Source: Sumerlaeia bacterium
GTDB taxonomy: Bacteria > Sumerlaeota > Sumerlaeia > SLMS01 > JAHLLQ01
DNA: 43,441 bases
Assembly (NCBI GenBank): GCA_040219255.1
Contig: JAVJSW010000053.1
Span: forward strand, 1 to 43,441
Direction: 5' to 3'
This document shows positions 27,642-41,814 of this stretch, piece after piece (within the stretch, counting starts at the first letter, position 1; each line of letters opens with the position of its first letter). The notes under the pieces are model-generated. The model made no database searches. It was not told where the DNA came from and saw only the letters and a list, made by a program, of their open reading frames with translations. The position numbers and the translations under genes are program-made.

Positions 27642-28766
27642 GTGAACAAAACCTCATCGCTCGCCGTCACTGTCGGCATCTTCGTGATCATCGGCCTCGT
27701 CCTGGCCATCGGCATCGCGCTGGGCATCGGGGGCGGCATCGGCTCCAAAGACACCTACACCGTCACGGGCTTGTTCAATAACGTGGGCGGCGTCGAACCC
27801 GGCACGCAGGTATCCCTCCAAGGCCTCAATGTCGGCGAAGTCCAGGAAACCGGCTTCGCCGCCGATGAGGGCAAAGTCCGCCTCCAATTCTCCATCCTGG
27901 AAAACTACTCCCTGCCCCAGGACAGCACCGCCTCCATCCAGTTTTCGTCCCTCCTCGGCCAACCCAACGTCGTCATCCAGTACGGCGCTTCGGACGCGAT
28001 GCTGGCCAAGGATGGCTCCGCCCGCATCAAAACCCGTGACGTGCCCACCATCGGCGAAGCCTTCGACAAGGTGGCCGAACTCGGCTCGGAAGTGCGCGAT
28101 TTGGCCAAATCCTTCAACGAAGGCCAATCGTCTGTCCTGACGAAGATCGAAAAGGTCATCGACGACAATGAAGCCAACATCCGCGAAGCGACCGAATCGC
28201 TGGCGGAAGTGGGCCCCCAACTCAAAGAGCTTTCCAACCGCCTCAACGAACTCACAACCCAGGTTTCCAACGGCCAGGGAACACTCGGCAAGCTCTTCCA
28301 GGACGACAGCCTCTACAACGACTTGAAGACGCTCTCCGAAGATATGAGCGCCATCAGCGAAAAGATGCGCAACGGCGAGGGCACCCTCGGCCGCCTCCTA
28401 AACGATGACTCCCTCGTGACGCAGGCGCAGACGAGCCTGGACGAAGTGGCCGCCGCGGGCCGCGAGGTGCAGGAACTGCTCGGCTCGCGCCGTGAAGACC
28501 TCGACAAACTGGTGGATACCCTGGCGAACGCCGGACCGCAACTCGAGCAAGCCCTCTCCGACATCAGCGCGGTGAGCGAAGACATGCGCTCCATCTCGAG
28601 AAAAATCAACGAGGGCGAAGGAACGTTGGGCAAACTGGTCAACGACCCCGATCTCTACAAAGACGCCCAGAAGGCGGCCCAGCAGGTCGGCGAAACCCTC
28701 GAGCAAAGCGAAGAGCAGGGCGTCATCCGCTCGTTCCTGGGAATCGTTTTCGGGGCCGCGATTTGA
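27642..28766 (+). CDS. MCE/MlaD family protein with a long helical region
   Basis: N-terminal TM; F.NVGG...G..V...G..VG.V, SLLG; three G.GTLG.L..D..L repeats. Confidence 0.9.
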   Translation: MNKTSSLAVTVGIFVIIGLVLAIGIALGIGGGIGSKDTYTVTGLFNNVGGVEPGTQVSLQGLNVGEVQETGFAADEGKVRLQFSILENYSLPQDSTASIQFSSLLGQPNVVIQYGASDAMLAKDGSARIKTRDVPTIGEAFDKVAELGSEVRDLAKSFNEGQSSVLTKIEKVIDDNEANIREATESLAEVGPQLKELSNRLNELTTQVSNGQGTLGKLFQDDSLYNDLKTLSEDMSAISEKMRNGEGTLGRLLNDDSLVTQAQTSLDEVAAAGREVQELLGSRREDLDKLVDTLANAGPQLEQALSDISAVSEDMRSISRKINEGEGTLGKLVNDPDLYKDAQKAAQQVGETLEQSEEQGVIRSFLGIVFGAAI

Positions 28767-28974
28767 CAACCGCTGACCCAAACCGCGAAAGCCGGCAATT
28801 TTTTCTTTTCCCCCTTCGCCTTCCGCTTGCATCTTTTGCCAACGCTCGTCTCTATAAGGAAATGGAGACGCCAGTTGCGATCGAGGAATGGCTTGCGCCT
28901 TTCCCCGCCCGTGGATTTTCTCCGCATGGCGCGTCCCTTCGACGCCCCTGCACACGTAACGGAAGGCTTTGACG

Positions 28975-29802
28975 ATGGCGCTGTCCGCCAACGAACTCGC
29001 CAAATTGCAGGCCGATCTGCGCTCCGGGCGCAATCCCCTGGCCTATATCCCCATCTGCAATGAACTGCGCCGCTGCAAACGCAATGCGGAAGCGCTGGAA
29101 ATTTGCCAGCAGGGCCTCTCCCGCGATCCCTCTTCGCTTGCCGGACGCATCATCCTGGCGCGCTTGCTGGGCGATCTCGGCCGCTACCAGCAGGCCCTCT
29201 CCGAAGTCAAAAAAGTCGAAGCCTCCGCGCCTGACTCCAAAGGGCTTCTGATCGAAAAGGCCCGATGCCAGGTCAAGCTCAACCTCCTGGCGGAAGCGGA
29301 AGAAACGCTGACCAATCTGGAGTTCCACAACCCCGTCGACCCGGAAGTGCAAAAGATCCGCACCCAGTTCCGCAACGTTCGCCTCGCCAGCTCGCAAACG
29401 GCCGGCCCGAAAGCAGCGCGAACTCTGACTGTCACACTTTCCATGGATGAAGTGACAAGCTTGATCAAACGGCAATTGACTCCCTTGGGCAAGCTCAAGA
29501 CGGTTGCTCTGCTTGACCTCGATTCGGGACGATCCGCCATCGAAGGTGACGCCGTTTTCGCCGACGCTGGCGAAAGCCTCTATCAGGAAGCGGCGATGGC
29601 CTGCGATGAACTCGATCAGGGCCTTCTCCGCCACGTGATCGTCGAAATCAAGGGAGCGCTGATGATCGTGGCCCGAAGAGATCGTAAACTCGTTGTGGTT
29701 TGCAGCGATCCAACGGTCAATTTCGGCAAGTTGCAGCACCGCCTTCAACTCTGCCTGGATCAGCACGTGCCCGCTACCGAGCCCGCCACGGAAGTGGGCT
29801 GA
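28975..29802 (+). CDS. TPR-repeat protein with a C-terminal roadblock/LC7-like domain
   Basis: N-terminal TPR helices (EALEICQQGL..DP..LAGRIILARLL..LG...QAL). The C-terminus ELDQGLLRHVIVE..GALMIV....LVV......NFGKL is typical of roadblock. Confidence 0.75.
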   Translation: MALSANELAKLQADLRSGRNPLAYIPICNELRRCKRNAEALEICQQGLSRDPSSLAGRIILARLLGDLGRYQQALSEVKKVEASAPDSKGLLIEKARCQVKLNLLAEAEETLTNLEFHNPVDPEVQKIRTQFRNVRLASSQTAGPKAARTLTVTLSMDEVTSLIKRQLTPLGKLKTVALLDLDSGRSAIEGDAVFADAGESLYQEAAMACDELDQGLLRHVIVEIKGALMIVARRDRKLVVVCSDPTVNFGKLQHRLQLCLDQHVPATEPATEVG

Positions 29803-29844
29803 AGACTTTAGAACCCGGTCCAACGGAAAGGACTTCTCCAACAG

Positions 29845-30792
29845 ATGCTCCCCCTGTCGCGCTCCCTCGTGTTGGTTCTCCTATTCCTCCTCGGAATTGT
29901 CGCCACGGCCATGGCCTTCGCCGGAACCGTCCCCATTTTCGAAAACGTGGGCAACGTCGTTCCCCTGGTTCTCGCCGCGGAAATCGTCCTCTATTTCTTT
30001 CTGACCCTTTTCACCAACCCCCGAATCCCCCTCGTCTCGACCATCGTTCTCTCCGTCGGCATGGCCCTCTTCCGCGCCATCGCCTGCGTCCTCGGCTCGG
30101 CCGCCGCCTCCGCCTTCTCCGAAGGTCAATTGCAGCCCATCGAGGGTTGGATGGTGGCCTGGATCGGCAATCCGATCGGCGTTCTCATTCAGTTCATCCT
30201 GCTCGCTCTCGCCGCCCCCCATTTCCTGGAAATGGTCTTCCCCGACATGATCGGCCGCGAGACGCGCCAGAAACTCCTCGGCTCTTCGTCCCGCCCGGTG
30301 GAATCGAACCGGTCGGCCCAGAATCCGATGTCCGACTCCAACCCCTCCGGCGGCTTCATCCAGGTCTTCAGCTATGACGAACTGACCGCCGTCATTCGCA
30401 AGAGCCACGGCCTCGAAGGCTTCATCATCTACAACAACGAGGGCCTCATCGTCTGGCGCGACCTGCCGATCCGCCTCGAATCCGACCGTCTCGTGGCCAA
30501 ACTGATGGCCCTGCACGATCAACTCGCGGACGTCGTGGAAGCCTCTTCGCTCTCGCGCGTCCGCAAAGTCATGGTGGAATCGCGCGAGCACCTCGTGTTC
30601 ATCACACCTCTCAACCAAAACTTCGGCATGATCATGGTCTACAACCAAAGCACGACCCCCTCGGAAAGCTTTACCCGGCTGGCCGTGATCGCCAAGACGA
30701 CCCGGGAATTCCTCCAGTGGAAATACCCCGGCCTGCCGGTGACCGCGTCGATGACGCAAAGCCAAATGGCGATCGAGATGGTGAAGGTCTAA
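29845..30792 (+). CDS. Four-TM membrane protein with a C-terminal roadblock/LC7-like domain
   Basis: Four hydrophobic segments, then HGLEGFIIYNNEGLIV...VRKVMVES...VFITPL....GMIMVY. Confidence 0.78.
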   Translation: MLPLSRSLVLVLLFLLGIVATAMAFAGTVPIFENVGNVVPLVLAAEIVLYFFLTLFTNPRIPLVSTIVLSVGMALFRAIACVLGSAAASAFSEGQLQPIEGWMVAWIGNPIGVLIQFILLALAAPHFLEMVFPDMIGRETRQKLLGSSSRPVESNRSAQNPMSDSNPSGGFIQVFSYDELTAVIRKSHGLEGFIIYNNEGLIVWRDLPIRLESDRLVAKLMALHDQLADVVEASSLSRVRKVMVESREHLVFITPLNQNFGMIMVYNQSTTPSESFTRLAVIAKTTREFLQWKYPGLPVTASMTQSQMAIEMVKV

Positions 30793-30881
30793 TTTTTTCT
30801 AGCGCCCGTGCCTCAAGACCGGCGCAATGATTTCCAATCCCCCTCCTTCGAAACTGGAGCGGGCCCCGGAGTGGACGCGAT

Positions 30882-31235
30882 ATGGAACGCACCCTTGCGG
30901 AACTGAACAAAACCCCTGGCGTCATCGGCTCCTTTGTCGTTGCCGCCGACGGCATCATCGTCGCCTCCGATTTCGCGACGGAAATCAACGACGAGATGAT
31001 GGGAGCCCTGACCAGCTCGATCATCAACTCGACCGAGAAGGCGACGAAAAAAATGGAGCAGGGCGAACTCGTCTCCTTTATCATTGAAACCGACCGCAAC
31101 AAACTGTTCTTCAACTCCACGCGATCGGGATTTCTGGTCTGCGTAAGCCGGCAGGACGCGAATCTCGGACTCATCCGCGTGGAGATGCGCTCCGCTTCCG
31201 AACGCCTCAACAACGTCGGCATCGGAGTTCAATAA
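30882..31235 (+). CDS. Roadblock/LC7 domain protein (MglB/MglC-like)
   Basis: PGVIGSFVVAADGIIVAS, GEL..FIIET, ANLGLIRVEM; 117 aa; directly upstream of mglA. Confidence 0.9.
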   Translation: MERTLAELNKTPGVIGSFVVAADGIIVASDFATEINDEMMGALTSSIINSTEKATKKMEQGELVSFIIETDRNKLFFNSTRSGFLVCVSRQDANLGLIRVEMRSASERLNNVGIGVQ

Positions 31236-31328
31236 CTCCACTGGCCCCCGGGCCAGACCACTTTCTCCCCCCTTGCGGCAAGGGAATTGAAACTCAACGG
31301 GCAAAGGACGACCTCCTGAGAGACGGCC

Positions 31329-32543
31329 ATGGCAACACTCAACTACGCCTTTAAAGAGATCTCCTGCAAAATTGTGTATTACGGCTGCGGCCTCTGTGGG
31401 AAAACGACCAACCTCCAGCACGTCCACAAAACCGTGCCGGGAAAATTCCGCGGCGAACTCGTCTCCCTGGCGACCGAGCAGGATCGAACCCTCTTCTTTG
31501 ACTTCCTTCCCCTCGACCTCGGCGAAGTGAAGGGCTTCAAAACCAAATTCCAGCTCTACACCGTTCCCGGCCAGGTCTACTACAACGCCACCCGCAAGCT
31601 CGTTCTGCGCGGCGTCGACGGCCTCGTCTTCGTCGTCGACAGTCAGCGCGACCGCTTGCAGGAAAACATCGAATCCTTTGAAAACCTGAAGCAGAACCTC
31701 GCCGAATACAACTACCACCTGCAAATCGAAAAGGACGACGACGAGGGCATTCCCTGGGTCTTGCAGCTCAACAAGCGCGACATGCCCCAGATCAGCACCC
31801 GCGAAGAAATCGTCGAAGCCCTCGATTGCCCCTACACCCCCGTCATGGACGCCGTCGCGGTCACCGGCATCGGCGTGAAGGAAACCCTCAAGGGCATCAG
31901 CTCCCTCGTCATCCAAAAGCTCAACACCCGCTCAGGCCTCATCGGCGGCGGCAAGACCGACGCCAGCAAACCCGGCGCTCCCGTACCGACCGCCCCGGGC
32001 GCCGACGCGGACGATGACGATTACGGCTCCATCGACGAAAACGAACTCGAAGAAATGGAAAGCTCGGGCGGCCACACTCCGGCTCCCCCGGCCCCTCCCG
32101 CTCCGGCCGCTCCCAAAGCCACGGCTGCACCGGCGGCCGCACCCCAAGCGGCTCACCCGCCGTCTTCCAGCGCCGGCGCCCCACCCAACTTGAACGTCAC
32201 GCAATTCTGCGACGCCCGTTGGCGCGGCATGAAAACCGGCTCGGGCATGCTCTCCTTTTCCAACATTCAGGGCACAAGCGACTACCAGCTCACCGGCCAG
32301 CTCGCCTTCATCGGAGCCTTCAAACGAACGCTCAGCCTGAAGATGGCCTACCGGGGCGTGGAACTCAAAGGTCACAACGGCCAGGATGCCCGCTTTCACA
32401 AGTTTGAAACGATCGGAGGGGAAAGTCCGATCTTGACCCTCATGGTATCCGATGTGGCATCGTTGAAGGAACTGTTCGGAACCTATAACGGTTTCGGCGG
32501 AGAAATCGCCGTCTCGCCCCAGGGCAAGCCGGCCTTGAACTAA
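31329..32543 (+). CDS. mglA: MglA-family small GTPase with a long C-terminal extension
   Basis: KIVYYGCGLCGKTTNL, DRTLFFDFLP (Arg finger), LYTVPGQV.Y, NKRD, AVA.TG.GV. The first ~200 aa closely follow Myxococcus MglA as I recall it. Confidence 0.95.
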   Translation: MATLNYAFKEISCKIVYYGCGLCGKTTNLQHVHKTVPGKFRGELVSLATEQDRTLFFDFLPLDLGEVKGFKTKFQLYTVPGQVYYNATRKLVLRGVDGLVFVVDSQRDRLQENIESFENLKQNLAEYNYHLQIEKDDDEGIPWVLQLNKRDMPQISTREEIVEALDCPYTPVMDAVAVTGIGVKETLKGISSLVIQKLNTRSGLIGGGKTDASKPGAPVPTAPGADADDDDYGSIDENELEEMESSGGHTPAPPAPPAPAAPKATAAPAAAPQAAHPPSSSAGAPPNLNVTQFCDARWRGMKTGSGMLSFSNIQGTSDYQLTGQLAFIGAFKRTLSLKMAYRGVELKGHNGQDARFHKFETIGGESPILTLMVSDVASLKELFGTYNGFGGEIAVSPQGKPALN

Positions 32544-32657
32544 ATATGGACTTGTCCGGTCCGAGAGAGATGGGCTGCGGTCTGACTCGGACGTACCGGA
32601 TTTCCAGTTTCCAGCAGCGGAAATGGTCGCGCCGGATCAGAAAGGACCACTAAGTCA

Positions 32658-33140
32658 ATGGCCAAGACTCCTCTTATCCTGACCAAGACGGAGATCACCC
32701 AGATTCATCGGACGCTTTTGCAAATGCTCAAGCAGTCCGAAGCCAAGTGCGCCATCCTCGTGGATGCGGATGGCAAATGCCTGGCGAAAAAGGGGTTCAC
32801 TCAAAACATCGATACCGATGCCTTGGCGGCGCTGATTGCCGGGTCTTTCGCCTCCACTCGCGCCATGGCCTCCCTCGTCGGCGAATCGGATTTCTCCGTC
32901 CTCTTCCACCAGGGAGACAAAGATCACATCCACAACATCCTGGTGGACAACGACACCATCCTGACGATTATTTTCGACGACCGCACCACCATCGGTATGG
33001 TTCGTCTCTATTCGAAGGAATCGGCCAAGGTCATTCAACAGACCATCGGCGCCGCCCGCGAGAAGCGTATGCCTTCCAACCGGAAGATCGATATCGAGCG
33101 GGACGTCGAAGATCGCCTCGACGATCTCTTCAAGGACTGA
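32658..33140 (+). CDS. mglB: MglB GTPase-activating roadblock protein
   Basis: LVD.DG, TQNIDT..LA.L.AG, L.GE..F...FH.G.KD, IFD.RT..G.VRL and an acidic C-terminal helix LDDLF, all matching Myxococcus MglB as I recall it. Confidence 0.92.
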   Translation: MAKTPLILTKTEITQIHRTLLQMLKQSEAKCAILVDADGKCLAKKGFTQNIDTDALAALIAGSFASTRAMASLVGESDFSVLFHQGDKDHIHNILVDNDTILTIIFDDRTTIGMVRLYSKESAKVIQQTIGAAREKRMPSNRKIDIERDVEDRLDDLFKD

Positions 33141-33264
33141 TCGATCGCACTCCAACCGCTCCCCCACCGCCCTCACTCGACGCACCCCTTCCCCATGTTG
33201 GGTCGCGCCCTTCCCCAACGAATTGTGACGATACGGTCTGAAAAGAAGGGGCGAGTTTCACGCC

Positions 33265-34548
33265 ATGCAAGGTAATCTTCACGAAGTTCCCCTGCCAGAA
33301 GTTCTCCAGTTCATCTCGATGGGCAAGCCCTCGGGCATGCTTCATCTACGCCGTGACAACAACGAGATCACGCTCTACGTCAAGGGAGGGCGAATCATCA
33401 ACTCGTCCTCCATCGAGCGCAAACGCCGCCTCGGTGACCTCCTCGTTCAGCGCGGCCTGCTCAAACGCAGCGAACTCTCCCAACTTCTCCAACTGCAAAA
33501 AACCGTCGAATCGGACAAACGCCTCGGCCACATCCTGGTCGAGCGCGACGTCATCCCCGAAGAGACCATCCGCGAAGTTCTCCGCATGCAGCTCGAAGAG
33601 GAAATCTGGGCCCTCTTCGCTTGGAAAGAAGGCGAATTCCGATTCGAAACCGTCGATGAAGCCCGCCTCGGCGATGCCATCGTACACATCGACATCGAGC
33701 CCCTCATCCTCGAAGGCACCCGCCGCAACGACGAATGGGAAGCCATTCTCGATGTCATCCCCAACGACAGCCTCGTCCTCACCGTTGCCAGTCTCGACGA
33801 AGAATTCGACCGCGACAGCCTGAACCTCAAACCTCAGGAATGGAAAGTCCTCTCGGAAATCAACGGCCGATTCACCATCAAAGCCATAGTCAATCGCTCC
33901 GGCATGGGCCGCTTCGAAGTCCATCGCATCCTCAGCCAATTCATCAAGTCCGGCCTCGTCGTCATCCGAGCCGACACACCCCTGCAAAACAAGAGCAGCG
34001 CCACCACCGCCAAATCGGCGGACCGCGCCGACGCGGGCAAGAAGGGCGGCATCCTCTCCCTGATCGGCGGCACCAAAACCAAAGACAAGGGCGCCAAGGA
34101 AACCCTTTCCTTCATCTCCCCCATCGGGGTCATGGGCTACTTCGTCAACGTCTTGGCGCAACGCGTCACCGCCCTCAAGGAATACGCCCCCTCGGAAGGC
34201 GACGACTCCCTCTACGAAGCGATCTGGAGCGACATTGGCCAGACCTACACCAAGGCCGATCTGCTCTCCGTCTCGGCCAATTCGGTCAACACCCGCGACA
34301 TCGAAACCTTCTTCAGCGGTTTCGAATTCAAAGAAGCCGTGGACGATTGCTACGAGGATACCATCGAGGCGCTCACAACGCTGCTCCAGACGGCCTTCCG
34401 CGTCTTCGCGACTCGAGTCGGCGAGCGCCCCGCTTCCCGCATCGTCCGGGAATTGCTCGATGAACTCGGCGACCAAACCATCGTCAAGTACCGCGGGCCC
34501 TTCCCGCTCGTCGAACGGGTTCAGAATGTCTTGCGTTTGGCAGCCTGA
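33265..34548 (+). CDS. DUF4388 (PatA_N) protein with tandem MshEN-like c-di-GMP-binding motifs and a winged-helix-like segment
   Basis: MQGNL.EV.LPEVLQFI...K.SG.L; RLGDLLVQRGLL....L..LL..Q and RLGHILVERDVI....I..VL..Q; WKEGEFRF; LILEG.RR.DEW; EWKVLSEING. Confidence 0.88.
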   Translation: MQGNLHEVPLPEVLQFISMGKPSGMLHLRRDNNEITLYVKGGRIINSSSIERKRRLGDLLVQRGLLKRSELSQLLQLQKTVESDKRLGHILVERDVIPEETIREVLRMQLEEEIWALFAWKEGEFRFETVDEARLGDAIVHIDIEPLILEGTRRNDEWEAILDVIPNDSLVLTVASLDEEFDRDSLNLKPQEWKVLSEINGRFTIKAIVNRSGMGRFEVHRILSQFIKSGLVVIRADTPLQNKSSATTAKSADRADAGKKGGILSLIGGTKTKDKGAKETLSFISPIGVMGYFVNVLAQRVTALKEYAPSEGDDSLYEAIWSDIGQTYTKADLLSVSANSVNTRDIETFFSGFEFKEAVDDCYEDTIEALTTLLQTAFRVFATRVGERPASRIVRELLDELGDQTIVKYRGPFPLVERVQNVLRLAA

Positions 34549-34610
34549 TTTCCGAAATTTGAACTTCGATATCATAATGCGCCCTTTGTCGGCGCCTGGG
34601 AGAACCGCAC

Positions 34611-35810
34611 ATGCCTGGTGAACGGGTCCTTGTCGTTGACCGTTCTTCGACGGTTCAAGAAGCAACCAAAGCCATCCTGGAGGAACACGGGTATCGCGTC
34701 ACCATCGCGAGCAATGGCCTCGCCACCGTCACCCATCCGGAAATCGAGCGCTTCGACCTCATCATGTGCGACAGCACACTCGATGGCATCGATGGCCTGG
34801 AAACAACCCGCCAGATCAAGACGGACAAGGAGATCTACAAGATCCCCGTCCTCCTCATGATCCCCGAAGACTCCATCGACCTGCTCGAAAGCGTCCCCCT
34901 CAAGGGCGCCACCGGCTGGATGGCCAAGCCCTTCACGCCTACCCGCCTCCTCACCAAAGTCGAGGAAATCATCGACGAGCAGCGCCTTCGCGTCCGCTCG
35001 CGCAAATACCTCGATGACGCCGCCGACCGCCAGATGCAGCAACTGGCGGAAACCAAGATCCAGGCAGCGGTGGAAAAGAAAATCCAGATCATCGTCGAAC
35101 GTGCGATCCAATCCATCGTCTCGATCATCGACCAGAAAGCCCGCCGCGAAGTTGACGCCCGCGTCACCGCCCTGACCGCCGAGAAGGAGCAAGAGCTCGT
35201 CCGGATCACCGTTCAGGAAGTCGCCAAGTCCATGATCGAAAAGCAGGCCGAGCGCAAAGTCACCGAAGCCATGCAGACGATCCTGGTCGAGCAGACCGAG
35301 AAAACCGTCCGCCGCGCCGCCGACAGTATGCTTCCCTCCATGGTGAAGGACCGCATCAAAGGCTCTCTGGAAGACATCCTGCCCCGCGAAGTGGAAGCCC
35401 GCGTGGACAAAGCCGCGCAGCTGAAAGCCGAAGAAATCGGCGAAGGCATCGTCCAGATCGTTCAGCAGCAGGCCATCAAGCACGTGCCCCTGGTCGCCAA
35501 GGAAAAACTGCCCGAACTGGCCGAACGGCAACTCGTCACCCTCACCGAAACCAAGATGCCCCGCGTCATCGCCGAATCGGCTCGCGCGGCCGTCGCCAAG
35601 GAAATGGCCCAAACCGTCAAGCCCATCATCGACGAGGAAATCGGCCGCCTCAAGCGCGCCCGCCGCACAAACCTCATCATCGTCATTCTCGTCCTCCTTG
35701 TCACTCTGGTCGTCGGCATTCTGGCCCCCATCGTCGTCGACCAAACCGGAATTCTCAGCTCCCGCTCCCCCGCCCCGGTGACTCAACCGACGGCTCCGGC
35801 CGCTCAGTAA
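34611..35810 (+). CDS. RomR-like response regulator: receiver domain, long helical repeat region and C-terminal TM anchor
   Basis: VLVVD, DLIMCD..L.GIDG, KPF; amphipathic repeats ending LPELAE..IIDEEIGRL; hydrophobic tail LIIVILVLLVTLVVGILA. Confidence 0.8.
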   Translation: MPGERVLVVDRSSTVQEATKAILEEHGYRVTIASNGLATVTHPEIERFDLIMCDSTLDGIDGLETTRQIKTDKEIYKIPVLLMIPEDSIDLLESVPLKGATGWMAKPFTPTRLLTKVEEIIDEQRLRVRSRKYLDDAADRQMQQLAETKIQAAVEKKIQIIVERAIQSIVSIIDQKARREVDARVTALTAEKEQELVRITVQEVAKSMIEKQAERKVTEAMQTILVEQTEKTVRRAADSMLPSMVKDRIKGSLEDILPREVEARVDKAAQLKAEEIGEGIVQIVQQQAIKHVPLVAKEKLPELAERQLVTLTETKMPRVIAESARAAVAKEMAQTVKPIIDEEIGRLKRARRTNLIIVILVLLVTLVVGILAPIVVDQTGILSSRSPAPVTQPTAPAAQ

Positions 35811-35841: not shown

Positions 35842-35881
35842 CACCCGGGCCGGCCCCCAGCCGGCCCGGGTGTTCGTTTTT
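35842..35881 (+). terminator. Intrinsic terminator closing the mgl cluster
   Basis: Perfect 13-bp stem cacccgggccggc/gccggcccgggtg followed by ttcgttttt. Confidence 0.75.
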
Positions 35882-36089: not shown

Positions 36090-36932
36090 ATGAATCGGAC
36101 CACCTCCCTCCTCACCGCCCTCGGCGCCGCCGCCCTGCTGACCCTCTCCACCGCGACCACCCTGGAAGCCGCTCCCCGCGGCGAACGGGGCCGGATCTCT
36201 CCCAAGATTCACCAAAACGACGGCCCCTCCGCCGACGCTCCCAATCGCCCGGACCGTCCCCGCGGCCCCGAAGGCCCTCGTGGCCCTGAACGTCCCCATG
36301 GTCCGGAAGGCCCCGAGGGCCCCCGCCATCCTCACGCCCGCCTCCTTCTCCCCTTCTGGGAAAATCCTGAAATCGTCGAAGCCATCGAACTGACCGACAG
36401 CCAGATCGCCCTCCTGGAAGACAGCCTGGAAGTCACCAGCGACACCCTCGCCGTCCTCAAGGAAGAAGCCAAGGACCTCAAAGGGGACCTGCGCGAAGTC
36501 CTCGAACAAGACGCGCCCGAACTCGACGCCGTCTACGCCGCCGTGGACGCCAAAGCCGTCGTCCGCGTCGGAATCGAGAAGGCCGTTCTCGGCCACGTCG
36601 TGGTCGTCAAGAACGTCCTTTCCGCCGAGCAGGAAGAAGCCCTCAAGCAATTCCTGCGTGACCGCGAGCGCCCCGACCGCCCTGGCCGCGAAGGCCGCGA
36701 TGCCATCAACGACATTCGGGAAGAACTCCGCGGCTACCTCGAAGACGGCGTCTTGACCGAGGAAGAGTGGGCCGCCATCGATGAAATCCTCGCCCCGCTG
36801 CCCGAGGGAATGCAGGACCGCATCCGCGAAGGCATCGAGCGCCGTCTCAACCGCCGCGATGGCTCCACGCCGCCGCCCCCTCGGGCCGATGGCGACGGAA
36901 ATATCCCGCCCCTGCCGCCCCTCGCCTTCTAA
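36090..36932 (+). CDS. Spy/CpxP-like (LTxxQ) periplasmic protein with Pro/Gly/Arg repeats
   Basis: Signal peptide, (PxGP/PxRP)n, ELTDSQ and VLSAEQ motifs; AGGAG SD. Confidence 0.75.
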   Translation: MNRTTSLLTALGAAALLTLSTATTLEAAPRGERGRISPKIHQNDGPSADAPNRPDRPRGPEGPRGPERPHGPEGPEGPRHPHARLLLPFWENPEIVEAIELTDSQIALLEDSLEVTSDTLAVLKEEAKDLKGDLREVLEQDAPELDAVYAAVDAKAVVRVGIEKAVLGHVVVVKNVLSAEQEEALKQFLRDRERPDRPGREGRDAINDIREELRGYLEDGVLTEEEWAAIDEILAPLPEGMQDRIREGIERRLNRRDGSTPPPPRADGDGNIPPLPPLAF

Positions 36933-38241: not shown

Positions 38242-38991
38242 CTATTTCGAATACGCCTCTTCGCCCTGGGCGATGGCGGCTTCGTAGTTTTCGTCCTCAC
38301 TGAGGATGCGGCTGCAATTGTCGCAAGTGGCAATTTCTTCCCCTTTGTGTACCACGACGAGCATGTTCGGCAGGATGGAGAAATGACATCCGCCGCAGCT
38401 TCCGCCCCGCACCACCACGACCGGGTCGCGGGGGTGGCGCTTGCGGATGCGCTCGTAGACTTCCAGGGCCTCGGCGGGCACCTTGGTGGCCGACTTATCG
38501 CGGGCTTTGTTCAAGGCAACAAGACGATTTTTCTTCTCCTGAACTTGTCCCCGGATGCGCTCACGCTCTTGCGAGGCGTGACGTTTCTCTTCTTCCAGGG
38601 CCGCCTGCGTTTCCTTCACCTTTGCTTCGATGGACTGCTGGCGTTCCAGAATTCCCGTCGCCCGTTCCTCCAGCGTCGTCATCTTCGCCGTCAAATTTTC
38701 GATCTGCTTGCTGATCGCATGCAGCTCTTTGCTGGTTTTCACCATCATCTGCCGAGCCTGCGAACGCTTCAGCTCTTCGGTGCATGCGCGCAATTCTTGC
38801 TCAATGCTCTTGCGGTCCTCTTGCTGCTTAGCCAGGGCCGCCTGGGCGTCGTCGTAATTCTTGGCGCGGCGCTGGACAACCGCTTTCACCTCGTCCCACA
38901 CGCGGGGATAGCGATTGAGTTGATCCTGAACCTCTAAAATCTCCTGGTCGATCATTTGCAGATCGAGGAGGTAAACAACATCGGGGTGCAT
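38242..38991 (-). CDS. Coiled-coil C4 zinc-ribbon protein (DUF164/CdsZ/HP0958 family)
   Basis: L.DLQ.ID.EI, long coiled coil, YERIR, CGGCH....P, CDNCSRIL. Confidence 0.92.
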   Translation of the reverse strand: MHPDVVYLLDLQMIDQEILEVQDQLNRYPRVWDEVKAVVQRRAKNYDDAQAALAKQQEDRKSIEQELRACTEELKRSQARQMMVKTSKELHAISKQIENLTAKMTTLEERATGILERQQSIEAKVKETQAALEEEKRHASQERERIRGQVQEKKNRLVALNKARDKSATKVPAEALEVYERIRKRHPRDPVVVVRGGSCGGCHFSILPNMLVVVHKGEEIATCDNCSRILSEDENYEAAIAQGEEAYSK

Positions 38992-39673: not shown

Positions 39674-41593
39674 TCAATCCGCCGCGGTGATGCGGTCCAA
39701 CTCTTCCACCGAAGTGTGACCGAGGACCACCTTGCGGAAGCCGTCCATGCGCAGCGACCGCATGCCGCCGCGCACCGCGATGCGTTTCAGCCGGCTCGAC
39801 GGCTCGCCGCGCATGATGAGCTGACGAATCTGCGGCGTGACGACGAAGATTTCGTGGATCGCGGTGCGGCCCTTGTAGCCCGAACTGGAGCATCGGTCGC
39901 AGCCTTGCGGCACACAGATATCCACACCGTTGGCGAGTTCTTCTTCCGTCGCACCGACGCCCTCCATACCGCTCGGGTCGAAGTGCTCCTGCCGTTTGCA
40001 ATGGGCGCACAACCGGCGAATCAGGCGCTGGGCGATCACAGCCTGCACCGAAGACGCCACCAGGAACGGCTTCACGCCCATGTCGGTCATTCGTGTCGCG
40101 GCGCTCGGCGCGTCGTTCGTATGCAGCGTTGAGAACACCAGGTGGCCGGTCAGAGCGGCGCGCACCGCGATCTCGGCGGTTTCCATATCGCGGATTTCAC
40201 CCACCAGAATCACGTCCGGCGACTGGCGCAGCATCGAGCGCAAGCCGGTCCGAAAGTTCAATCCCAGTTCCTCGTTCACCTGCACCTGGATCACCCCGTC
40301 GAGCATGTACTCGACCGGGTTTTCGATGGTGATGATTTTCGTCTCCGGGGTGTTGAGTTGCGAGAGGGCGGAGTAAAGCGTTGTCGTCTTGCCCGAACCG
40401 GTCGGTCCGGTCATCAGAATGACGCCGGTAGGCTGGCGGATCAATTCGCGGAACAGACGGATATTGTCCGGCAGGAAGCCCACGTCTTCCAGACCCAGCA
40501 TCACGCTTGACTGATCGAGAAGTCGCATGACGATCGATTCGCCATAGATCGTCGGCAGCAGGTTGACGCGGACGTCCAGGCGGCGGTCGGTCATGTTGAG
40601 CTTGATACGGCCGTCCTGCGGGATGCGCTTCTCGGCCAGGTCCATGCCCGAAAGCACCTTGAGGCGCGAGATAATGGCGTTCTGCCACTTCTTCGGCGGG
40701 CTCGGAATCTCGTGGCACACGCCGTCGATGCGGAACCGGATCACGCACTGATGCCGCGTCGGTTCGATGTGGATATCCGAAGCGCGGTCGTGCACCGCCT
40801 GCTTGAAGATCAGGTCGACGAACTTCACCACGGGCGGAAGATTCGCGTCTTCCTCGATATCCACTTCGTTGTACGATTCCTTCAGACGGGCTTCCGACTC
40901 GTGCATTTCGTCGGTGACGGCCTGATAGAACTCGGCCATCTCGTTGCCTTCGTAGAAGCGCTTGATGGCCCGGTCGATTTCGATTTCTTTGGCCACCATG
41001 CCGTAAACCTTGCGGCGGACGATTCGCTCCAGGTCGTCGATCACCTGCACGTTCATCGGATCCGCCAGAGCCACATGCAGGCTGTCCGCGTCGTAGGCCA
41101 CGGGGAACACGCGGAACTTGACGGCCGTCTCCTTATCCATCTGGGCCAGCAGGTCTTCCGTTACATTGACCTGGGAAATGTCGACCTTCTCCATGCCGAG
41201 GTTGTCGGCGATGGCGTCGAGAATGTCTTCCTCGCGAATCTGACCGCTCTTCACCAGTTCCTTGGTGATGGCGGTGGCTTCTTCGCCGCCGCGTCGGATC
41301 GCTTCTTCGATCATGTCGGAATTGACGAGACCCGCTTCTTCCAGCATGCCGGCGATCGAGGGGCGGGGCAGGCGCGATCCGCGCTCGCGTTCGATGCGCT
41401 GGAAATACTCACGCTGCTCCCTCGAAGGAACCTTCCTCTTAACGGCCGGCGCCGCCGACTCGCCCTGAGGCGTGTTCGGCACGGTCGCCAGGGGATCGGT
41501 CCAGGTTTCTTCCGACGTCTTCTTCTTCGGACTGACCGGAGCAGCCGCTTCCTGCTCGACATTTTCCTTCGACTTCTTGCTGAAAAGACCCAT
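39674..41593 (-). CDS. pilB: Type IV pilus / T2SS assembly ATPase PilB/GspE
   Basis: ASDIHIEP, RIPQDGR, Walker A GPTGSGKTT, LRQSPDVILVGEIRD, STLHTNDA, CxxC..CxxC, GYKGR; N-terminal MshEN/T2SSE_N-like domain. Confidence 0.95.
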   Translation of the reverse strand: MGLFSKKSKENVEQEAAAPVSPKKKTSEETWTDPLATVPNTPQGESAAPAVKRKVPSREQREYFQRIERERGSRLPRPSIAGMLEEAGLVNSDMIEEAIRRGGEEATAITKELVKSGQIREEDILDAIADNLGMEKVDISQVNVTEDLLAQMDKETAVKFRVFPVAYDADSLHVALADPMNVQVIDDLERIVRRKVYGMVAKEIEIDRAIKRFYEGNEMAEFYQAVTDEMHESEARLKESYNEVDIEEDANLPPVVKFVDLIFKQAVHDRASDIHIEPTRHQCVIRFRIDGVCHEIPSPPKKWQNAIISRLKVLSGMDLAEKRIPQDGRIKLNMTDRRLDVRVNLLPTIYGESIVMRLLDQSSVMLGLEDVGFLPDNIRLFRELIRQPTGVILMTGPTGSGKTTTLYSALSQLNTPETKIITIENPVEYMLDGVIQVQVNEELGLNFRTGLRSMLRQSPDVILVGEIRDMETAEIAVRAALTGHLVFSTLHTNDAPSAATRMTDMGVKPFLVASSVQAVIAQRLIRRLCAHCKRQEHFDPSGMEGVGATEEELANGVDICVPQGCDRCSSSGYKGRTAIHEIFVVTPQIRQLIMRGEPSSRLKRIAVRGGMRSLRMDGFRKVVLGHTSVEELDRITAAD

Positions 41594-41814
41594 GCGGTTA
41601 TCGATCCTTGGGGCGGTTTGGCACTCCGGCGTCTGCGTGGCAATGGGGCGCCGCCGCATCGTTCGCCGGGTTGCCAACCCATGACTTGGCCACTGCATCG
41701 TGCGCAGTCCCGGCGCGCAAGGCAACCGGAAACCGGAAGCTCACTAAAGAGGTTTTATGTCCGCCAGCCCCGGGCGGCAACGGACTTTCCACCGCCCGGA
41801 CTCCTGGCGGGCCG

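Follow-up and report, generated by a model that had tools for sequence, protein, structure and literature searches.

A conserved seven-gene operon of Candidatus Sumerlaeota places an extended MglA, MglB and three further roadblock proteins beside a PATAN-receiver gene pair

The MglA/MglB pair is the main bacterial model of a Ras-like polarity switch, and what is known about it comes almost entirely from Myxococcus, where the partners of the switch are scattered over the genome. Here, we analyze an operon of seven genes (g1 to g7) on contig JAVJSW010000053.1 of a Sumerlaeia bacterium (assembly GCA_040219255.1); the whole stretch of DNA that was analyzed, 43,441 nucleotides in length, is referred to as the window. 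In this operon an extended MglA, an MglB and three other roadblock proteins are encoded together with a PATAN (DUF4388) protein and a receiver protein that carries a membrane helix. We rate at slightly above an even chance the reading that the operon joins an MglA switch to the g6-g7 pair, with type IV pili or a related envelope machine as the most likely output.

Parts of this arrangement have precedents. A gene link between MglA/MglB and PATAN is already in print, as far as the accessible text of the source goes (Wuichet and Sogaard-Andersen 2014, citing Makarova 2006). According to the available text of a preprint on Synechocystis, PATAN domains bind PilB1 and PilC, and the helical insert of PATAN has been likened there to the N-terminus of PilB (bioRxiv 10.1101/2021.06.11.447907). 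Our literature search, which did not cover the neighborhood table of the 2014 survey or the 2006 PATAN paper, found no published description of the architecture reported here. No paper treating both Sumerlaeota and MglA was found in it, and on MglA, roadblock, PATAN and cyclic di-GMP (c-di-GMP) it returned only the known Myxococcus, Bdellovibrio, cyanobacterial and conservon work.

According to the list of open reading frames (ORFs) of the window, the operon consists of seven ORFs on the plus strand at 28969-35810. Its genes and the hairpin that follows them are:

g1, 28969-29802, plus strand: 277 amino acids; tetratricopeptide repeat (TPR) protein with a predicted C-terminal roadblock-fold domain (residues about 156-277)
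g2, 29845-30792, plus strand: 315 amino acids; putative four-helix membrane domain and C-terminal roadblock domain
g3, 30882-31235, plus strand: 117 amino acids; stand-alone roadblock protein
g4, 31329-32543, plus strand: 404 amino acids; Group 1 MglA G domain, linker and predicted all-beta C-terminal domain
g5, 32658-33140, plus strand: 160 amino acids; MglB
g6, 33265-34548, plus strand: 427 amino acids; PATAN (DUF4388) with an inserted MshEN-type c-di-GMP motif and a helical C-terminal domain
g7, 34611-35810, plus strand: 399 amino acids; receiver, DUF445-like helical stretch and C-terminal membrane helix
Intrinsic terminator-like hairpin, 35842-35872, plus strand: 13-pair stem (12 G-C pairs) followed by a T run

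The intergenic gaps from g1 to g7 are 42, 89, 93, 114, 124 and 62 bp. The hairpin starts 32 bp 3' of g7. With 16 terminator-like sites in the region against 13.6 (standard deviation 3.9) in shuffled sequences, their total is not raised; this hairpin is by far the strongest of them and is distinguished by the length of its stem. A sigma-70-like site was looked for upstream of g1 and none was found. The ORFs, the Pfam and NCBIfam matches and the 13-pair hairpin thus bear out the seven co-oriented genes, the strong terminator and the domains that the original prediction had proposed.

The center of the operon is the switch itself. Small-GTPase families match only residues 1-200 of g4, and the G domain aligns with M. 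xanthus MglA (5ymx) at 236.8 bits over residues 1-201. Group 1 MglA proteins are recognized, in the accessible text of their description, by an arginine beside the G2 threonine and by a G3 motif TVPGQ rather than DxxGQ (PMC4316618). Both marks are present in g4, as D52-R53-T54 and T78-V79-P80-G81-Q82 are invariant in 18 of 18 orthologs, and the gene for a cognate MglB, g5, lies 114 bp downstream. By these residues, the G domain of g4 is assigned to Group 1 MglA; the protein departs from the single-domain Group 1 form of about 200 residues in that residues 201-404 make up a linker and an extra domain. The product of g5 matches Robl_LC7 at 47.0 bits (Pfam), and its profile positions 5-160 align to residues 4-159 of M. 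xanthus MglB (6izw_B; E = 1.9e-27), including the C-terminal helix.

The Sumerlaeota proteins therefore resemble MglA and MglB of Myxococcus xanthus and Thermus thermophilus in the G domain, the intrinsic arginine, the TVPGQ motif and the full-length alignment of MglB, and they resemble the Myxococcus system also in having an extra roadblock paralog, which is MglC there. They differ from the Myxococcus and Thermus systems in that MglA is extended by 200 residues, with a new beta domain at the end, that three roadblock proteins are added (one fused to TPRs and one embedded in the membrane), and that all these parts share one operon with PATAN and receiver genes. No RomR homolog beyond the receiver domain was seen, and RomX and RomY were not searched for.

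A second mglA was observed on another contig (G000 C68:64304-65303; L082:1498-2680). It is short (204 amino acids), has GVPGQ as its G3 motif, and is followed by a 180-amino-acid mglB-like roadblock gene. Its match to M. xanthus MglA, 197.6 bits, is lower than that of g4. Most of the cluster-bearing Sumerlaeota genomes have two MglA matches.

The extension of g4 consists of a Pro/Ala-rich and acidic linker (residues about 201-285) and a C-terminal domain of about 120 residues (about 286-404). A profile built from 29 sequences of this domain retrieved just 32 proteins at E <= 0.001 among 1.84 billion representative proteins, in each case with the match at the C-terminus of the protein. Nine matches were inspected: eight of them have MglA G-domain sequence upstream, and the remaining one (P0073) is a spurious repeat protein. 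The domain has no recurrent Pfam family and no sequence match in PDB, and its comparison with roadblock profiles by hhalign gave a probability of 0.3%. The AlphaFold2 model, with a predicted local distance difference test (pLDDT) value of 94.9 and a predicted template modeling score (pTM) of 0.87, contains eight strands joined by short turns, which we interpret as an up-and-down meander forming a beta barrel or a beta sandwich. As far as sequence and model go, it is a new all-beta domain found only in fusion with MglA.

MglA frames with more than 100 residues beyond the G domain were also noticed in Fibrobacterota (L025, L035-L060) and Planctomycetota (L068, L071), through a quick and unfinished G-domain tree with long branches. 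None of these extensions matches the profile of the Sumerlaeota C-terminal domain, and MglA may have gained such extensions on several occasions. Six of the MglA loci (L031, L046, L050, L051, L055 and L057) are identical or nearly identical to Fibrobacter and belong to one series of isolate names, under bin labels as different as Eggerthellaceae, Senegalimassilia, Oscillospiraceae, Alistipes, Sodaliphilus and Methanomethylophilaceae. These loci probably stem from Fibrobacter contigs that were assigned to the wrong bins.

Three further roadblock proteins precede MglA. The clearest is g3, which matches Robl_LC7 at 46.2 bits (Pfam) and is 77-96% identical among 18 orthologs. By sequence, its nearest solved structure is the Asgard roadblock protein 7yh1 (E = 6.8e-15), MglB reaching merely E = 0.04. 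In g2, hydrophobic segments occupy residues 1-133, which we read as four putative membrane helices. The C-terminal part of g2 reaches 21.6 bits for Robl_LC7 with hmmscan, just below the cut-off of 23, and 24.1 bits when the genome was searched, and it aligns with the g3 family by hhalign at 88.7% probability (E = 2.6e-6, 84 columns). The g2 family comprises 42 proteins, mostly with Sumerlaeota names, and 22 of them carry PF03259 in precomputed annotation. Within the membrane part of g2 (29845-30240), three residues do not vary (E46, Y50 and R77) and two hardly do (P110 and Q116); the retention of these polar residues suggests that this part is more than a passive anchor.

The roadblock domain of g1 is the one least supported by the profile searches. 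Pfam detects TPR_19 in g1 (57.2 bits) and no Robl_LC7 match at E <= 0.1. When compared by hhalign, the C-terminal part gave a probability of only 23.5% against the g3 family and no significant result against g2. A hidden Markov model (HMM) of this part, searched against 10,631 ORFs, matched only roadblock domains outside its own family (E = 1.1e-4 to 4e-3), namely, in Armatimonadota and UBP2, roadblock proteins with and without TPRs and, in the operon itself, g3; the TPR proteins matched in Armatimonadota and UBP2 pass Pfam Robl_LC7 with 40.9 to 47.4 bits. The top PDB sequence match is again the Asgard protein 7yh1, weak at E = 0.041 but with the whole domain aligned. Moreover, the AlphaFold2 model of residues 156-277 (pLDDT 92.6, pTM 0.85) has, in model numbering, the helices (H) and strands (E) H4-18, E21-28, E34-38, H40-59, E67-72, E75-82, E85-91 and H97-111. 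This element order, H-E-E-H-E-E-E-H, is what we take to be the roadblock topology. A roadblock fold is thus the predicted structure of the g1 C-terminal domain, supported by the topology of the model and the profile links. Altogether, the four roadblock domains proposed earlier for this operon, including those fused to TPRs and to membrane helices, hold up: g3 and g5 pass Pfam, g2 is recognized by profile comparison with hhalign, and g1 by the AlphaFold2 model and the HMM.

The PATAN protein g6 matches DUF4388 (PF14332) at 113.9 bits (cut-off 25) and the NCBIfam model of an MshE-related c-di-GMP motif, NF053729, at 43.7 bits (cut-off 38). The described MshEN site is composed of two tandem 24-residue motifs, RLGxx(L/V/I)(L/V/I)xxG(L/V/I)(L/V/I)xxxxLxxxLxxQ, with a 5-residue spacer (PMC5013675). 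In g6, motif 1 (residues 55-78) satisfies the published consensus at all positions, and motif 2 (residues 86-109) satisfies it except for Gly10->Asp and Leu17->Ile, after a spacer of 7 residues. R55, G57, L60, G64, L71, L75, Q78, G88, L91, L106 and Q109 are invariant in 16 of 16 orthologs, and the PDB profile matches of residues 52-110 are the MshEN regions of PilF, PilB and MshE. A c-di-GMP input, as had been suggested for this operon, is thus consistent with a well-kept MshEN-type motif in g6. The only ESM Atlas match of the C-terminal part of g6 is the C-terminal part of another PATAN cluster, with a template modeling (TM) score of 0.61.

The product of g7 begins with a receiver domain (Response_reg, 70.5 bits in Pfam), in which D10 and K106 are invariant among 16 orthologs. 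Residues 126-350, rich in A/E/V/K/I/R, are read as helical, with a nearly invariant stretch at 146-217, and six of the 16 orthologs weakly match DUF445 (best E = 2.4e-5), a family for which the literature search yielded just DUF445x families without relation to it. A hydrophobic segment at 349-384 is predicted to contain a membrane helix at about 353-380; together with the N-terminal segments of g2, it agrees with the original prediction of two membrane-anchored proteins. The helical region has 98 relatives, each of them fused to a receiver in a protein of similar length; wherever a lineage is named for them, it is Sumerlaeota or BRC1. In 65 of 75 Sumerlaeota genomes, g7 is present as a single copy.

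This protein had been called RomR-like. RomR is described, in the accessible text of its source, as a receiver followed by a proline-rich linker and a glutamate-rich C-terminal region (PMC12719032). Neither the linker nor the glutamate-rich region is found in g7, which has the DUF445-like helical region and the membrane helix instead. Only the N-terminal receiver domain is shared, and g7 was rejected as a RomR. Another likeness is to the cyanobacterial PatA-type proteins PixG and PixE, which combine a PATAN domain bearing a helical insert with a receiver and act at the inner membrane on the pilus motor. Whereas the PatA-type protein is a single soluble protein, Sumerlaeota have the two halves in separate neighboring genes, a predicted membrane anchor on g7 and a GTPase switch in addition.

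The distribution of the seven genes was then examined by profile and synteny searches. The host genome is a 5.35-Mb assembly in 83 contigs. Among the best 24 loci found with g4, 22 are named Candidatus Sumerlaeota or Sumerlaeia and two are labeled only "bacterium". As judged by these loci, the host lineage is Candidatus Sumerlaeota and not Myxococcota, which agrees with the earlier view of a non-myxococcal lineage. All seven genes occur in the same order and orientation in 14 of the 20 closest loci; in the remaining six, contig ends cut the series, the visible part is consistent, and no locus has another order. A g2 profile search of the phylum found the gene in 36 of 75 genomes, including every genome of the order of the host and several other families. 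Of eight loci inspected from distant families, five keep the g1-g7 order, two are truncated at contig ends, and in one g2 is the only gene of the set. A conserved cluster centered on MglA/MglB, as originally proposed, is therefore confirmed by synteny. Conservation within it is uneven: the mean column identity is 85% for g3 and 87% for g5, the G domain of g4 is also extremely conserved, and g1 and g2 are far more variable.

Of the 75 Sumerlaeota genomes, 65 have g7, 62 have g6, 53 have an MglA G domain, 46 have the MglA C-terminal domain and 36 have g2. As read from the tables of gene places, 62 genomes contain both g6 and g7; the two genes are neighbors on the same strand in 58 of them, and in the other four a gene lies at a contig end. 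Family f11 has g6 and g7 each in six of seven genomes and MglA in none of the seven, and none of these genes was found in family f16. The extended MglA of family f15 stands alone, flanked by rpoB/bshC and MFS/nrdR genes, and g6-g7 lie elsewhere. In five genomes of the f15 type, the g5 profile found no match and Pfam Robl_LC7 nothing over its cut-off; a single sub-cut-off Robl_LC7 match of 17.8 bits is apparently located beside the short mglA. Intermediate states also exist, with g4-g6-g7 contiguous in one locus (L091) and g4-g5-g6-g7 in another (L092). From the phylum counts and these family states, g6-g7 are distributed most broadly, followed by the extended MglA, and the roadblock set has the most restricted range. 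The cluster is made of nested layers rather than one indivisible unit, with the roadblock set in only about half of the genomes. The claim of a single module hence stands for the fixed g1-g7 order, and gives way where the g6-g7 pair is found phylum-wide and, in f11, in genomes in which MglA was not found.

Related clusters were observed outside the phylum. Among 60 loci outside the family, 12 carry mglB-mglA-PATAN trios (Coatesbacteria, Zixibacteria and unnamed bacteria). They share with the operon a PATAN gene that adjoins mglA and mglB, although the order in Sumerlaeota is roadblock-mglA-mglB-PATAN. Closer are two Armatimonadota loci (L039 and L065), in which a TPR-roadblock gene, two unknown genes and a roadblock-mglA-mglB-PATAN run are followed by a 186-amino-acid gene of no known family and then by pilM, pilN and pilO. 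Their core order corresponds to g3-g4-g5-g6 and their TPR-roadblock gene matches the g1 profile; in contrast to Sumerlaeota, their MglA is short. Both the 12 trios and the Armatimonadota loci are without the membrane roadblock, the MglA C-terminal domain and g7, and their PATAN proteins lack profile positions about 47-110, where the MshEN-type insert lies. In addition, a UBP2 locus has the order PATAN, TPR-roadblock, roadblock, mglB, mglA, PATAN and receiver gene. The original prediction regarded the architecture as distinct; this stands insofar as no published description was found, and has to be narrowed in view of the MglA/MglB-PATAN link already in print and of the related Armatimonadota and UBP2 clusters.

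Several other genes flank the operon. A gene for an MlaD-domain protein with a long helical tail (27642-28766, plus strand) lies 200 bp upstream of g1. Among the 20 closest loci, 10 have a homolog of it upstream of g1, in seven cases as the immediate neighbor; in the others it is missing or displaced. Just past the terminator, a gene at 36090-36932 (plus strand) encodes a 280-amino-acid protein with a proline-rich N-terminal part and no Pfam family; its homologs lie 3' of g7 in four related loci (L008, L009, L010 and L017). Further downstream, a gene at 38242-38991 (minus strand) for a protein with a CT398-like coiled-coil hairpin and a C4 zinc ribbon lies between the operon and a PilB-like gene. 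The latter (39674-41725, minus strand), 4 kb downstream of the operon, encodes a PilB/GspE-type ATPase of 683 amino acids with T2SSE at 452 bits and MshEN at 60.8 bits.

For the way the parts may work together, we infer a scheme that extends from each binding step, the GTPase-activating protein (GAP) activity, c-di-GMP binding and phosphorylation to the pilus output. One module would be a GTPase switch, in which g5 (MglB) stimulates GTP hydrolysis by g4 (MglA). The products of g1, g2 and g3 would most likely pair into dimeric platforms, like other roadblock proteins, and these platforms may hold or regulate MglA and MglB at the inner membrane. The other module would be the phylum-wide pair, with g6 as a PATAN adaptor whose inserted MshEN-type motif binds c-di-GMP and g7 as a tail-anchored receiver that takes a phosphoryl signal. 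The beta domain of MglA, on its flexible linker, could serve as a docking or membrane-targeting device. The most likely output would be control over the site and timing of type IV pilus activity, or of that of a related envelope machine, PATAN presumably contacting the pilus motor.

The pilus part of this reading is drawn from the Armatimonadota neighborhood, in which the roadblock-MglA-MglB-PATAN run of both loci reaches pilMNO after the one 186-amino-acid gene, from the binding of PATAN to PilB1 and PilC, from the MglA literature and from pilus-type genes in Sumerlaeota. The host genome has 18 T2SSE-family matches and several PilM matches, and pilus genes are reported in all Sumerlaeota genomes of one survey, as far as its accessible text goes (PMC8092238). 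A number of observations weigh against the reading. When PilB, PilM, PilN and PilO were searched in all loci, matches were obtained only in the two Armatimonadota loci, and no pilus gene lies beside the Sumerlaeota cluster; the PilB-like gene 4 kb downstream is on the opposite strand and was not seen in the flanks of the relatives. The second half-motif of g6 has Asp for the turn glycine and follows a 7-residue instead of a 5-residue spacer. The acceptor position of g7, residue 54, is Asp in 14 of 16 orthologs and Glu in two, and the usual Thr/Ser position is not kept, which makes phosphorylation of g7 uncertain. Moreover, g5 remains under the cut-off of the sole NCBIfam MglB model, NF052242 (81.4 versus 200 bits), which is nevertheless its best NCBIfam match. 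Finally, the occurrence of g6-g7 in f11 genomes without detectable MglA makes a part of the operon independent of MglA.

Some of these points would fit a genuine MglA-based switch whose target is not type IV pili but, for instance, a type II secretion-like system, envelope lipid transport, cell division or an unknown gliding machine, any of which it could serve. We consider this unlikely, though a serious candidate. It would account for the lack of a conserved pilus neighbor in Sumerlaeota, for the MlaD-domain gene upstream of g1 in half of the close loci and for the many T2SSE-family ATPases of unknown assignment in the genome, and members of the MglA family control other processes in other lineages, according to the accessible text of PMC4316618. 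However, every experimentally studied PATAN protein named in the available text of the Synechocystis preprint points to pili, the nearest cluster outside the phylum runs into pilMNO, and the remaining close loci lack the MlaD gene or have it at another place. It is also conceivable, if quite improbable, that two independent systems share a transcript, so that g1-g5 would form the switch and g6-g7 would do a c-di-GMP and phosphorylation job of their own without contact to MglA. The nearly phylum-wide adjacency of g6 and g7, their presence in f11 and the solitary extended MglA of f15, among housekeeping genes and far from g6-g7, are what such independence would predict. Yet in at least nine families, every locus that has both parts shows them side by side and in one and the same order, the roadblock genes drop out while g4 stays joined to the g6-g7 run (L091 and L092), and MglA/MglB beside PATAN recurs in the trios of other phyla and in the literature.

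The notion that g7 is RomR and g3 is MglC, so that the operon would be the Myxococcus polarity module as one transcript, seems to us most improbable. It has in its favor the receiver at the start of g7, the small stand-alone form of g3, as in MglC, and the very strong conservation of both proteins. The body of g7 is a different matter, with its DUF445-like region and membrane helix in place of the RomR linker and tail, its relatives among receiver fusions with Sumerlaeota or BRC1 as the only named lineages, and its retention in genomes in which no roadblock protein exceeds the Pfam cut-off (none of five). As for g3, the solved structures nearest to it belong to archaeal roadblock proteins, and not one of the 25 PDB matches of its profile bears the name MglC; a direct sequence comparison between g3 and MglC was not made.

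A more speculative extension of the switch-and-pair reading, which we regard as rather unlikely in this full form, is that Sumerlaeota have a membrane-bound G-protein platform. In it, an ancestral g6-g7 pair would have recruited MglA through the lineage-specific beta domain on its flexible linker, and a Ragulator-like scaffold of four roadblock domains, added later and with one domain held in the membrane by a part that keeps charged residues, would set the nucleotide state of MglA at the membrane. The likeness to the eukaryotic Ragulator-Rag system is an analogy only and lies in several roadblock domains, a membrane anchor and a small GTPase with an extra C-terminal domain. The C-terminal domain of g4, in contrast to Ragulator-Rag, is predicted to be all-beta and scores the above 0.3% against roadblock profiles. 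If the platform were real, it would be a bacterial counterpart of membrane-scaffolded small-GTPase signaling and a new coupling of c-di-GMP to a Ras-like switch.

The operon contains two new protein parts, namely the C-terminal domain of MglA and the putative four-helix anchor of the roadblock protein g2, both of which can be expressed and studied without culturing the organism. Sumerlaeota thus offer a fixed parts list of the switch in one operon, together with a natural "deletion series" between families, from the full set through MglA and MglB with the pair and MglA with the pair to the pair alone. This series gives testable hypotheses on the roles of the extra roadblock proteins, on the recruitment of the G protein to the membrane and on the input of c-di-GMP to the switch.

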